Shown in pieces: positions 27,127 to 30,100 of a stretch of 31,902 bases of DNA (position 1 is the first letter of the stretch; every line of letters begins with the position of its first letter). This DNA comes from Chloroflexota bacterium (GTDB lineage: Bacteria > Chloroflexota > Anaerolineae > Anaerolineales > E44-bin32), in NCBI GenBank assembly GCA_026390045.1, contig JAPLGR010000191.1, positions 1 to 31,902 of the forward strand, given 5' to 3'. Both the position numbers and the translations under genes were made by a program. The notes beneath the pieces are model-generated. The model was not told the origin of the DNA and did no database searches. It saw nothing but the letters and a program-made list of their open reading frames with translations.

Positions 27127-30100
27127 CTATTCCTCAGCCACCTCGATCAACACGGCCTGGACAGCGATGCGGTGGAGATACTTTCCGGTGGCCTCGTCAT
27201 AGGTGCGGCAGGTGATCAGTGTCAGCCAGGCCTGATCCTTATGCCCCAGCGACCGCAAGTCACCGCCGTTCACGCGGGCAATGGTGCGGACTTTGTAGAC
27301 ATAGCGAAGGCCATACGCGTGCACCACGACTCGATCGCCCCAGCGCAGATCTGCCAGCTCGGCAAATGGGCCGGGTCGTCCATTGGGCAGTGTGACGTGG
27401 GCCGTGAGCGCGGAATTGCCTCGGTGCGTCGGGTAGGCCGTGCCTTCCAGGTACCCTGCCTGGGCACCGAGCCAGGTCAGATCCCATCCGGCTTCCTCGG
27501 CAGGGATGCCCACGATCGGGATGCTGATTCCAAGCGCGGGGATCTCCAGCGTCAAGTCACCTACGTCCGCAAGGTGTGACTGGCCCTCCAACTGTGTGAC
27601 GCGGCCGGGCGCAAAGCCAGTCTCCGGCAACCGGGGCACGCGCACCGTCACGTCTGCCGTCACGCCATACAGGTCGACGCCGGTGGCCGGATCGTAGCGC
27701 CGTTCGGCGGCCAGTGTGTTGTGGAGCGAGAGGTTCAACGAAGCGGGCGGATTGTCGGGAAGGCTGGTCCACTCCAGCCGGGCCATGTTGGTCACACCGT
27801 CTCCGGGCCCCAGGTTGCCCATCGTCGCCTGGAACTGTACGGTCGCCGTCTCTCCCAGGCCGAAATCATCCCAGGTGACGATCAGCGTCGGCGCTCCCGA
27901 TTCATCTGAGACGGCGGTCGGGCCGCTGATCGCGGCCAGGCTTCCCGGGACGTAGGTCAGGCCCACCGGGACAACATCCACGAGACGCAGGTCGAACGCT
28001 GCACTGTCGCTGCTCGCATCCTGTTCGATGGTAAGAGTGAAGGTGATCGGCGCTCCAGGCGGAGCCGACATCGGTGCGGCGGTCTTGGACAGCGTTAGCG
28101 TCGGCTCGACCAGGGTGACTTCCTGCGCGTTCTCGACCAGCTGGCCGCCCACCCACGTCCAGGTGACTCCGTTGTTCAGATTGACGCCGCGCACGTTCCC
28201 GGCATTGTCAATCGCCACCGCGGAGTAGAGCAGCGTCAGCGTCGCATCACCAGGCCCGGCGTTGGTCATCGTTCCCAAGTTGAAGGTCACGCGCCGGCCC
28301 TGATCTTCCGCATTGCCACTTCCGGCGGGTTCCTCGGCCACGCCCGGCGAGGAGCATGCAGCGGCAAAGTCTCCTGTTGTCGTCAGCCCCGACGAGGACG
28401 TCAGCGACAGGCACTCCACGAACGCAAGTCCCCTGTCCAGGACGTCCGTCAGAACCGCCGAGGGCATCGTTCCCACCGGGATTGTCATGACCACCCGGTA
28501 CGTCAAGATTTCTCCAATGGCCGCCTGCAGACCGGTGGTGTGCGTCTGACTGGTAGCAGACAGCTCCTTGGTGAGGTCGTAGTCGGGCAACGTCACCAGG
28601 TTGTCGGTGTCGGTGGCGGTGTTGTCCGCCGGATTCTGATCCGGGCCGTTGGCGCCGTTGTCGGCAATGGTGGAGGTGTTGACGACCGAGGATACGAGAG
28701 GCGGGTCGTTGACGACCACGACGAAGTTGACCGTTCCACCGACGCCGGCGGCCAGATCACCGATGGTGTAAGTACACGCGGTTCCGGCCGGCGATCCGGG
28801 TGCGCACGACCAACCCGTCGGCGAAACAAAGGTCGTTCCGGCCGGCACGGTCTCCGAGATGACTACGCCGCTGGCATCCTGATCACCGGCGTTGCTGTAG
28901 GTCAGAACGTAGGTCAGTGTCTCGCCCGGCGAAATGATGCTCAGCATGTCGGTCTTGGCAATCACCAAGTCGGGTGCGGCGTCGACGGTGTCCACGTCGG
29001 TGGCGGTGTTGTTGCCGGGCGTCGGATCGGGTCCGACGCTGCCGTCATCGTGCGCCTCAGCCGTGTTGGTCAGCGATTCGACGCCCGAGGGCAACGGATT
29101 GTTGACCCGCACGGTCACCGTGCGGAAGACGCTCGTCGCAGCAGCCAGGTTGAACGTCGGCCAGGTCACGACCCCGGGACTACTTTCGGAGCCACCGTTG
29201 CTTGCTGAAATGAACGCCGTGTTCGACGGCAGTGTGTCCGTCAGAAGGACATTGGGCGCCGTGGCGTTGCCGTCGTTGTAGACCGTGACTGTGTACGTGA
29301 GCGTGTTGCCGGGCGATGCGCTCAATCGCCCGTCGTCCTTCGACACCTGCAAGTCCGGGCCGGTCACGGTCACGGGCGCCGTGGTCGTCGTCCGGTAGTC
29401 GTCGACGCCTCCGGCGCCGGTGCGTTCGTCCCCACTCGAGCCGCTCAGGGAGGTCCAGCTAAGGTCGACGTCATTCGAAAGGATGTCGCCAATGTCTACG
29501 CTGCCCGGCCCCCCCACCGTCACCTGGTAGCTGATGACACTCGACTGGCCGAGGGCCAGCGTCGTCCATGAGGCCCTTAGCGTTGGGGCGCCGCTCGCAT
29601 CCAAGACGGCCGGCACGCCGGATACGTTGGCCAGCGAACCGGCGACATACGTCAGGCCGGGTGGCATCACCGTATCCGACAGACTCAGGTCGAAGGCATC
29701 GGCTGTACTCCCGCCTGCATGGGAGACCGTGATCCGATAGGTGATCGGCTGCCCGAATCCAGGCGTCGGATCGTCCACCACCTTCGCCAGCTGCAATTCC
29801 GGTTCGGTGACCGTGAGGGTGCGCACTCCGCCGGCAACGATCGCGTCGCCGGTCTGAGGATTCACATAGACCAGGCTGGCCGCATTGGCCAGCAGTGTCC
29901 CGTTCTGGTTGCCAGCAACGTTGAGCACCCGGGCGCGCACGCGAACCACGAACTGGTTCCGCGCGCTGCCGTTGGCCGGACCCGAGCCGTTGGTTTGCAC
30001 ATCGCCAAACTGGAATTCGAGCGTCACGCCTGAGGCGCCCACCACACATGCCGGGCAGGTGGGCGTCGAGGTCAACGTCCCGTTGTAGTCAGCCGGCAGG

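Follow-up and report, generated by a model that had tools for sequence, protein, structure and literature searches.

How does a secreted adhesin become attached to its cell when its sorting motif is followed, in the same polypeptide, by a sortase, and neither of the two carries a membrane anchor? The question is raised by the window analysed here, a stretch of 31,902 nucleotides that is the complete contig JAPLGR010000191.1 of a 736-contig metagenome-assembled genome (MAG) of a Chloroflexota bacterium (Anaerolineales; GCA_026390045.1), and specifically by the 3' part of a fibrillar adhesin gene in which an LPETG motif, a short linker and a sortase domain form the end of the encoded protein. 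In the textbook view sortases are membrane-anchored and act in trans on membrane-retained substrates. We consider it an even chance that the last ~167 residues of this adhesin are a single-use, self-processing anchoring cassette, and the features on which the argument draws are as follows (aa, amino acids).

27616..27630, minus strand: LPETG sortase recognition motif; aa 1425-1429, predicted scissile bond Thr1428|Gly1429
27550..27615, minus strand: post-motif linker FAPGxxTxLP...Y...LGD; aa 1430-1451, conserved and of fixed length
27130..27549, minus strand: sortase catalytic domain, the C-terminal end; aa 1452-1591, identified by PF04203, TIGR01076, AlphaFold2 (AF2) and Foldseek
27397..27399, minus strand: catalytic His1502 (LTAHV), 120/120 conserved
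27208..27210, minus strand: catalytic Cys1565 (TLITC), 120/120 conserved
27169..27171, minus strand: catalytic Arg1578 (HRIAV), 119/120 conserved
27247..27258, minus strand: short helix in the beta6/beta7 loop, LRSL; aa 1549-1552, from DSSP of the tail model
27640..28107, minus strand: last CLIPPER/DUF11-type immunoglobulin (Ig)-like domain; aa ~1266-1421, from DUF11, TIGR04226 and AF2 (predicted local distance difference test, pLDDT, ~90)
27127..31902, minus strand: 3' part of the fibrillar adhesin gene; 1591 codons plus stop, frame open to the contig end

A sorting motif and a sortase in one protein

In translation the C-terminal order is VTVRVPR-LPETG-FAPGRVTQLEGQSHLADVGDLT-LEIPALGISIPIVG...LTAHV...TLITC...HRIAV...VAEE and a stop. 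The motif starts 167 aa before the protein end, as compared to the last ~40 aa in LPXTG-anchored surface proteins, and a cut at T|G would free G1429-E1591, 163 aa. A preliminary description of the locus had given the same 163-aa product starting with Gly, which codon arithmetic bears out, and its coordinates for LPETG, His, Cys and Arg are all exact by translation and the same arithmetic. Over aa 1452-1585 the PF04203 Sortase model scores 71.1 bits (cut-off 26.6), TIGR01076 gives 41.3-47 bits on the domain (cut-off 39.35), and the modelled fold is that of an eight-stranded beta-barrel of the sortase superfamily (PF04203, MEROPS C60). The membrane anchoring typical of that superfamily is absent, the domain being the C-terminal end of a secreted protein. 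By hydropathy of the last 175 aa, no transmembrane segment was found after the LPETG in the window protein or in any of 120 relatives, and the relatives likewise have no basic tail there. A hydrophobic helix and a basic tail are both absent 3' of the motif, where the protein terminates in VAEE; this had been said of the protein from the start, and it agrees with a top 19-residue hydropathy of only 1.64, located on the beta1-beta2 strands of the sortase fold.

The frame is open at its 5' end, as the contig terminates within the adhesin gene, whose stop codon lies at 27127-27129. Judged from full-length relatives of ~2780 aa, the whole gene should have ~2780 codons, and the window protein aligns with residues 1190-2782 of one of these, P0004 (2783 aa). 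The N-terminal 477 aa of the adhesin are encoded on a different contig of this MAG (G000:C156:1-1431(-)), in a fragment 47% identical to P0004 residues 1-493 that begins, like its relatives, with a Sec signal peptide MGAFRPILRAVKGYSLRRVLFWGAALASLTSLLVPPPVAMA|RP (cleavage site assigned by eye); the repeat-rich middle of the gene, ~700 codons, is absent from the assembly. Searched over the whole frame, DUF11/CLIPPER (PF01345) matches with 184.5 bits in 4 stretches and the RrgB-type isopeptide domain TIGR04226 (NCBIfam) with 123 bits in 3 stretches, while some nine domain-start lysines follow one another at intervals of roughly 130-160 aa. The nine Ig-like modules initially described are thus about right for the part in the window; the protein itself is longer, given that the contig ends inside the gene. 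In the last Ig-like domain Lys1273, Asp1304/1309 and Asn1372 are invariant or nearly so (alignment A2), and they fit an intramolecular isopeptide triad when their spacing is compared with the CLIPPER crystal structure (PMC12617251). As read from its sequence, the window protein is a secreted fibrillar adhesin of the CLIPPER/DUF11 isopeptide type.

Conservation of the fusion

The conservation counts given here come from an alignment of 120 relatives that carry the tail. Within the motif, L1425 is kept in 112/119, P1426 in 119/119, T1428 in 117/119 and G1429 in 120/120, and the residue x (1427) is free, being A, E, D, S, G, R, N, K or others. The few motif variants are altered in the first residue alone (to I, V, M, Q, A, S, N or T). 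Conservation continues into the linker (F1430 120/120, A1431 113/120, P1432 117/120, T1436 110/120, Y1444 109/120), with the consensus LPxTGFAPGxxTxLPxQPxxxAYxxLGD, and the distance from the Gly to beta1 (LEIP) is 22-25 aa in 111/112 sequences and 22 in the window protein. Among 256 sampled relatives the motif is near-universal and none has lost one half of the cassette. The preliminary description had proposed a survey of LPXTG conservation; in practically every relative inspected the motif occupies one and the same place, far beyond chance, and with P, T and G kept and x free it bears the signature of a true sortase site.

A search restricted to the tail returned 209 long proteins with the same architecture, and all those with a named organism come from Chloroflexota/Anaerolineales MAGs. 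A profile built from 56 tails and searched against 1.84 billion cluster representatives (50% identity) matched 1463 representatives at E<=1e-30. Among the best 150 of these matches the cassette is at the extreme C-terminus in nearly all, in proteins of 223-6026 aa, many of the short ones being fragments; a few relatives have additional sequence beyond the cassette. One protein of 1048 aa (P0177) has tandem sortase domains, a first cassette LPRTGFAP...TLITC being followed by a degenerate LPKMGYSP and a second sortase-like domain (..TFITC).

Could the fusion be an artefact, that is, a frameshift, a chimeric assembly or a read-through that put a substrate gene and an independent sortase gene into one frame? 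The MAG is fragmented into its 736 contigs and some relatives in long-read MAGs have frames broken by indels, which lends the idea some colour. The junction, on the other hand, is well inside the contig, and the linker is too short for a stop, a start or a signal peptide. We dismissed an assembly or frameshift artefact, to which we attach next to no probability, on finding the same junction in hundreds of independent assemblies that include single-contig genomes with 2966-aa frames. A fusion by sequencing error, which the preliminary description had named as fatal to its reading, is likewise contradicted by the conservation in relatives, and its claim that LPETG is fused to an intact sortase holds, both LPxTG and catalytic triad being kept across them. 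To judge by these alignments, the fusion is ancient and under selection.

The cassette is joined to several kinds of passenger. The CLIPPER giants with a common N-terminal head are one type, SdrD_B/SpaA/CarboxypepD_reg proteins a second, and FG-GAP-like propellers of ~600 aa with their own signal peptides (L027, L029) a third, with beta-helix and lectin proteins as further passengers. Since these are unrelated to one another, the cassette behaves as a C-terminal tag for general use, and its topology is that of Gram-positive LPXTG adhesins.

Sortase class and the lid position

We considered to which class the fused sortase belongs. The class C model NF033745 gives 41-47 bits, under its cut-off of 160, the class F model NF033748 34.8-40.6 bits, under its cut-off of 166, and the class E NCBIfam model 31-37 bits, the class model cut-offs being 160-166. 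Class F membership, a name used by some NCBI records, was rejected on these scores, which lie far under the cut-offs. The class F label of the preliminary description falls with it (34.8-40.6 as against 166), the nearest structures being class C; in the hidden Markov model check proposed there, PF04203 came out above its cut-off at 71.1 bits and the class F model below its own. Class C sortases are the best matches of phmmer against the PDB, and the nearest solved proteins by both sequence and fold are the class C pilin sortases 8gr6, 2w1j, 4d7w, 2xwg, 7cg9 and 6bwe. Foldseek with the AF2 model of the tail gives a probability of 1.0 to class C 2xwg, 2w1k, 7cg9 and 2w1j (template modelling score ~0.6-0.8), and its alignments of 173-181 columns to lid-bearing class C structures have a root mean square deviation of 5-9 Å.

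In class C sortases a loop before beta1, the lid, lies as a pseudo-substrate in the LPXTG groove, where its Pro superimposes on that of bound LPAT (PMC3493515). For instance, SrtC2 of group B Streptococcus (GBS) has Asp84-Pro85-Phe86 as its lid and uses His156, Cys218 and Arg227 for catalysis (PMC3493515). From this Pro the His and Cys are 71 and 133 residues away in GBS SrtC2, as compared to 76 and 139 in the cassette, and with spacings so similar the cassette LPxTG sits in the chain where class C sortases have their lid. The linker consensus contains no DP[FWY], the lid motif, and has LPxTG at the equivalent position. When the tail is modelled alone by AF2 (56 sequences) the pLDDT is 91.8 overall and >=90 over LPETG and linker, and docking of the motif in its own active site is plausible.

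This resemblance also invites another explanation, namely that LPxTG-FAPG is an uncut pseudo-substrate lid of the class C type that regulates the active site, and that the tethered sortase has other proteins as its substrates and might, for instance, cross-link partners to the adhesin end. The nearest structures are indeed class C, with a lid that fills the LPXTG groove and is as far from the catalytic residues as the motif is here, and conservation of the linker past the motif exceeds what a leaving group would need. Known lids, however, have DP[FWY] and no Thr-Gly, whereas T in 117/119 and G in 120/120 with a free x is the pattern of a cleaved site, and a protein with an uncut lid would have no anchor of any sort. 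We regard an uncut lid as unlikely.

Motif, loop and the classical sortase pathway

If the domain recognizes the motif of its own chain, motif and recognition surface might change together. In Staphylococcus aureus SrtA the beta6/beta7 loop reads the Leu-Pro part of the signal. We analysed co-variation by mutual information with average product correction in 295 tails (effective number of sequences ~240), where motif position 1 co-varies with Leu1549 and Leu1552 of this loop (ranks 20 and 24 of ~14,000 pairs), and a non-Leu at motif position 1 is associated with Phe1552 (Fisher odds ratio 13, p 3e-9, kinship ignored). This co-variation is a lead that would be consistent with self-recognition and not a proof of it.

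The same genome also encodes a stand-alone sortase of 306 aa, class E/D-like, with an N-terminal transmembrane helix (G000:C266). It is 33% identical to the fused domain over 83 aa, which ruled out a recent duplicate of the housekeeping sortase as the origin of the latter. A regular-expression scan found one classical substrate in the MAG, LPATG-FADEVGLPGLVLLGALLVVVVIIS-RQLRMR, in which LPATG-FADEVG... is followed by a transmembrane segment and a basic tail; this protein (G000:C43:3381-3932(+)) has ~180 aa, an N-terminal transmembrane segment and a Pro/Thr/Ala-rich spacer, and its LPATGFA resembles the cassette LPxTGFA. A search of the genome with the PF00746 profile gave no match, not even to this substrate. 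Related genomes (5/5) have one stand-alone sortase plus 2-5 fused ones. Because the genome retains a membrane sortase and a classical LPXTG substrate, the cassette supplements the classical pathway: the sorting signal is replaced within the protein and the pathway is not replaced in the cell. The proposal that the enzyme replaces the sorting signal is therefore right for the window protein and wrong for the cell.

Alternatively, the stand-alone membrane sortase might cut the motif in trans and so anchor the adhesin, and the fused domain would be otherwise employed, for instance as a soluble sortase after removal of the N-terminal segment. Such an enzyme is present in this genome and in all five relatives, the classical LPATGFA is close to the cassette consensus, and a 1029-aa frame in another genome (L093; G362:C1:571500-575600) demonstrates that a classical substrate can be fused to a membrane sortase. 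In that frame a DUF11 protein with LPGTG, a transmembrane segment and HLWARRG is followed by a second transmembrane segment, a Pro-rich linker and a sortase, and it is possibly an evolutionary intermediate, a substrate-sortase fusion with both membrane segments kept. Classical sorting, however, requires membrane retention, which the adhesin does not have, and cutting in trans leaves unexplained both the intact enzyme and fixed linker of every paralogue and the tracking of the fused domain's own beta6/beta7 loop by motif position 1. We think cutting in trans improbable.

A proposed self-processing anchoring cassette

Several lines of evidence lead us to favour self-processing. Every paralogue has its own intact enzyme, with 2-5 per genome, though one acting in trans would suffice; the linker keeps to 22-25 aa; the motif holds P, T and G and leaves x free, a substrate-type pattern; the catalytic triad is near-invariant and no sampled copy has half a cassette; one cassette serves unrelated passengers; and the spacing from motif to His and Cys is lid-like in a tail whose model alone reaches pLDDT >=90. 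In addition, engineered sortase-LPXTG fusions cut themselves, even spontaneously during synthesis (PMC2901362), which shows that such chemistry can operate within one polypeptide.

On this reading the precursor would be exported by Sec via its N-terminal signal peptide, with the cassette emerging last, and the motif and linker would be held on their own barrel at the position of the class C lid. Cys1565 would attack Thr1428-Gly1429, either within its own chain or in a neighbouring copy of it, and the adhesin would then be carried on the enzyme as a thioester. Transfer would be to an amine of the envelope, most likely a stem or bridge amine of the peptidoglycan, or else a lysine in a protein of the envelope or of a fibre. 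The sortase domain (163 aa) would be freed, so that each enzyme copy is used about once. Cleavage, cis action, thioester, acceptor and single turnover are all steps that we infer. A FemAB-family gene in the MAG is a hint that the acceptor may be an amine of a peptidoglycan bridge. This gene (PF02388; G000:C726:4022-4807(+)) is spread over two frames with an in-frame TGA, and the split may be a frameshift or assembly error, or the mark of a pseudogene.

The same chemistry might be directed to another acceptor, with transfer to a lysine as in class C, giving pilus-like covalent fibres or ligation to another protein and not to peptidoglycan. This would suit the class-C-like fold, the RrgB-type isopeptide pilin domains (TIGR04226) in the passenger and the tandem paralogues that adjoin in several genomes. 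Against it, the window protein has no YPKN-type pilin motif, [YFVI]PK[NDGT] occurs in just 2/122 proteins, and the passengers have no common domain to bear a conserved acceptor lysine, so that we give a lysine acceptor of this kind little credence.

Four observations speak against self-processing. Structure prediction, which had been suggested as a means of seeing whether LPETG reaches the active site in cis, is confident at the motif in the tail-only model, but when the last Ig-like domain is included (43 sequences) pLDDT is <50 from Thr1428 to just before beta1 (model residues 163-180). The association between motif and loop is not significant in a phylogeny-aware test on a tree of the remaining domain, with 4 well-supported independent pairs; of these 4 phylogenetic contrasts about two agree in direction and almost none is opposite. 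The stand-alone sortase and the LPATGFA substrate are retained, and that other enzyme could cut the site. Finally, in a precursor with no membrane anchor there is no evident means of keeping it near the acceptor.

A more specific form of self-processing is conceivable, at clearly less than even odds. In it the cassette would be nature's counterpart of the engineered self-ligation tags, a sortase tag that acts in cis and for a single turnover. A substrate motif would have replaced the class C lid, such that each exported protein is pre-loaded in its own enzyme, turns its Thr-Gly bond into a thioester and is ligated to an envelope amine with no membrane-anchored enzyme or retention signal. The cut could run backwards for as long as no acceptor is at hand, since what leaves is the N-terminus of the enzyme itself.

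Comparison with known systems

The cassette has much in common with classical LPXTG sorting by classes A and E, including a signal peptide, an adhesive or stalk passenger, a C-terminal LPxTG and a sortase fold with Cys, His and Arg, and presumably also the chemistry of a thioester followed by transfer to an amine. It differs in that enzyme and substrate are one polypeptide at a ratio of 1:1, in that helix, basic tail and membrane anchor are missing from both parts, and in that residues past the scissile bond (FAPG..T.LP) are conserved. The class C sortases (GBS SrtC1/SrtC2 and Streptococcus pneumoniae SrtC-1; PMC3493515) are the best match in sequence and fold, with the spacing from Pro to catalytic residues within 5-6 residues; both they and, by prediction, the cassette have a segment ~25 residues before beta1 lying on the barrel, and both are associated with isopeptide-bonded pilin-type domains. 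As compared to class C, the cassette has LPxTG for DP[FWY], no N-terminal helices and no C-terminal transmembrane segment, and its gene is not in a pilin-sortase cluster.

Closer in arrangement are fusions made by engineers. In Mao's sortase-LPXTG-target tag and in BISOP the fused sortase cuts LPXTG and can ligate the product to an added amine (PMC2901362), as is proposed for the cassette. These engineered fusions are laboratory constructs with S. aureus SrtA and flexible designed linkers, whereas the cassette is natural and lineage-wide and has a conserved, structured linker. The STEPL construct is reportedly ordered target-LPXTG-linker-SrtA, which would be the same order of parts as in the natural cassette. 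Inteins and Hedgehog/HINT proteins also have a single-use catalytic domain C-terminal to the broken bond and pass an acyl intermediate to a nucleophile, but fold and chemistry are unrelated and the comparison is by analogy only.

In the full-text literature, whose coverage excludes most subscription journals, we found no description of a natural LPXTG-sortase fusion; the preliminary description had likewise known of no characterization, and within that same coverage its statement stands. Surveys of fibrillar adhesins (PMC8286594) and of isopeptide domains (PMC12617251) sought sortase motifs only in the last 50 residues, and because of this both would miss cassette proteins. In databases these proteins are labelled 'sortase' or 'LPXTG-site transpeptidase family protein'. 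Together this suggests sortase chemistry in a new fused, anchor-less arrangement and an apparently undescribed route of attachment.

A large natural family of substrates with their own anchor-less sortase would add a new logic to surface attachment. The cassette is on at least 1463 clusters (50% identity), in lineages dominant in sediments, soils and wastewater sludge, and could explain how many 'anchor-less' fibrillar adhesins are fixed. It would also show an evolutionary relation between pseudo-substrate lid and true substrate and would offer protein engineering a compact, genetically encoded self-ligating tag of ~170 aa. Should the segment be an uncut lid, this would still be a new sortase class with an unusual regulatory element.

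Distribution and neighbouring genes

The distribution was sampled in 401 genomes spread evenly across the phylum, with a strong match defined as one that includes the motif at E<1e-50. Strong matches are restricted to the window's own order, where the cassette is present in 22/24 genomes of one family (f2) and 2/9 of another (f3), in frames of 450-3600 aa, up to 5 per genome and often adjoining. The single genome of a further family (f4) yields no more than a weaker match (E 5e-30), to the fusion with two transmembrane segments described above (L093), and other orders and classes in the sample have only stand-alone sortases of 220-430 aa (E 1e-21 to 1e-34). A peptide-pattern scan of genome contigs identified no cultured isolate with the cassette and returned the same loci.

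The named loci are all from Chloroflexota MAGs, bar one contig binned to Acidithiobacillus. That contig (L011/L105; DYJM01000124.1, 3.8 kb) has a Chloroflexota-type cassette in a MAG labelled Acidithiobacillus ferrivorans, and its placement is probably a binning error and not horizontal transfer. Cassette genes are often paired within 5-10 kb, for instance at L021:6142-6690 and 11333-11869, and also on G112:C50, G394:C2 and G282:C15. In four MFD long-read MAGs (L003, L004, L015, L026) the giant frames upstream of the cassette are split and continue in other frames, which fits long-read indel errors or pseudogenes.

No conserved partner genes were found in a comparison of neighbourhoods, in which a close relative (L088) shares the synteny of sensor kinase, MutY and Pst and the neighbours of a more distant one (L089) are quite different. 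The common order of the window (18607-27118) and L088 is adhesin, hybrid sensor kinase (dCache-HAMP-GAF-HisKA-REC), MutY-like glycosylase and phosphate-type ABC transporter, and L088 has in addition a 2147-aa PAS/GAF sensor upstream of the adhesin. Elsewhere in the window, an open reading frame of 671 aa at 2019-4034(+) matches Pfam NAD-GH (PF10712) with 222 bits and overlaps dnaK at 813-2705(-) (HSP70, 862 bits) in antisense; the most likely reading is a dnaK shadow frame rather than a true gene.

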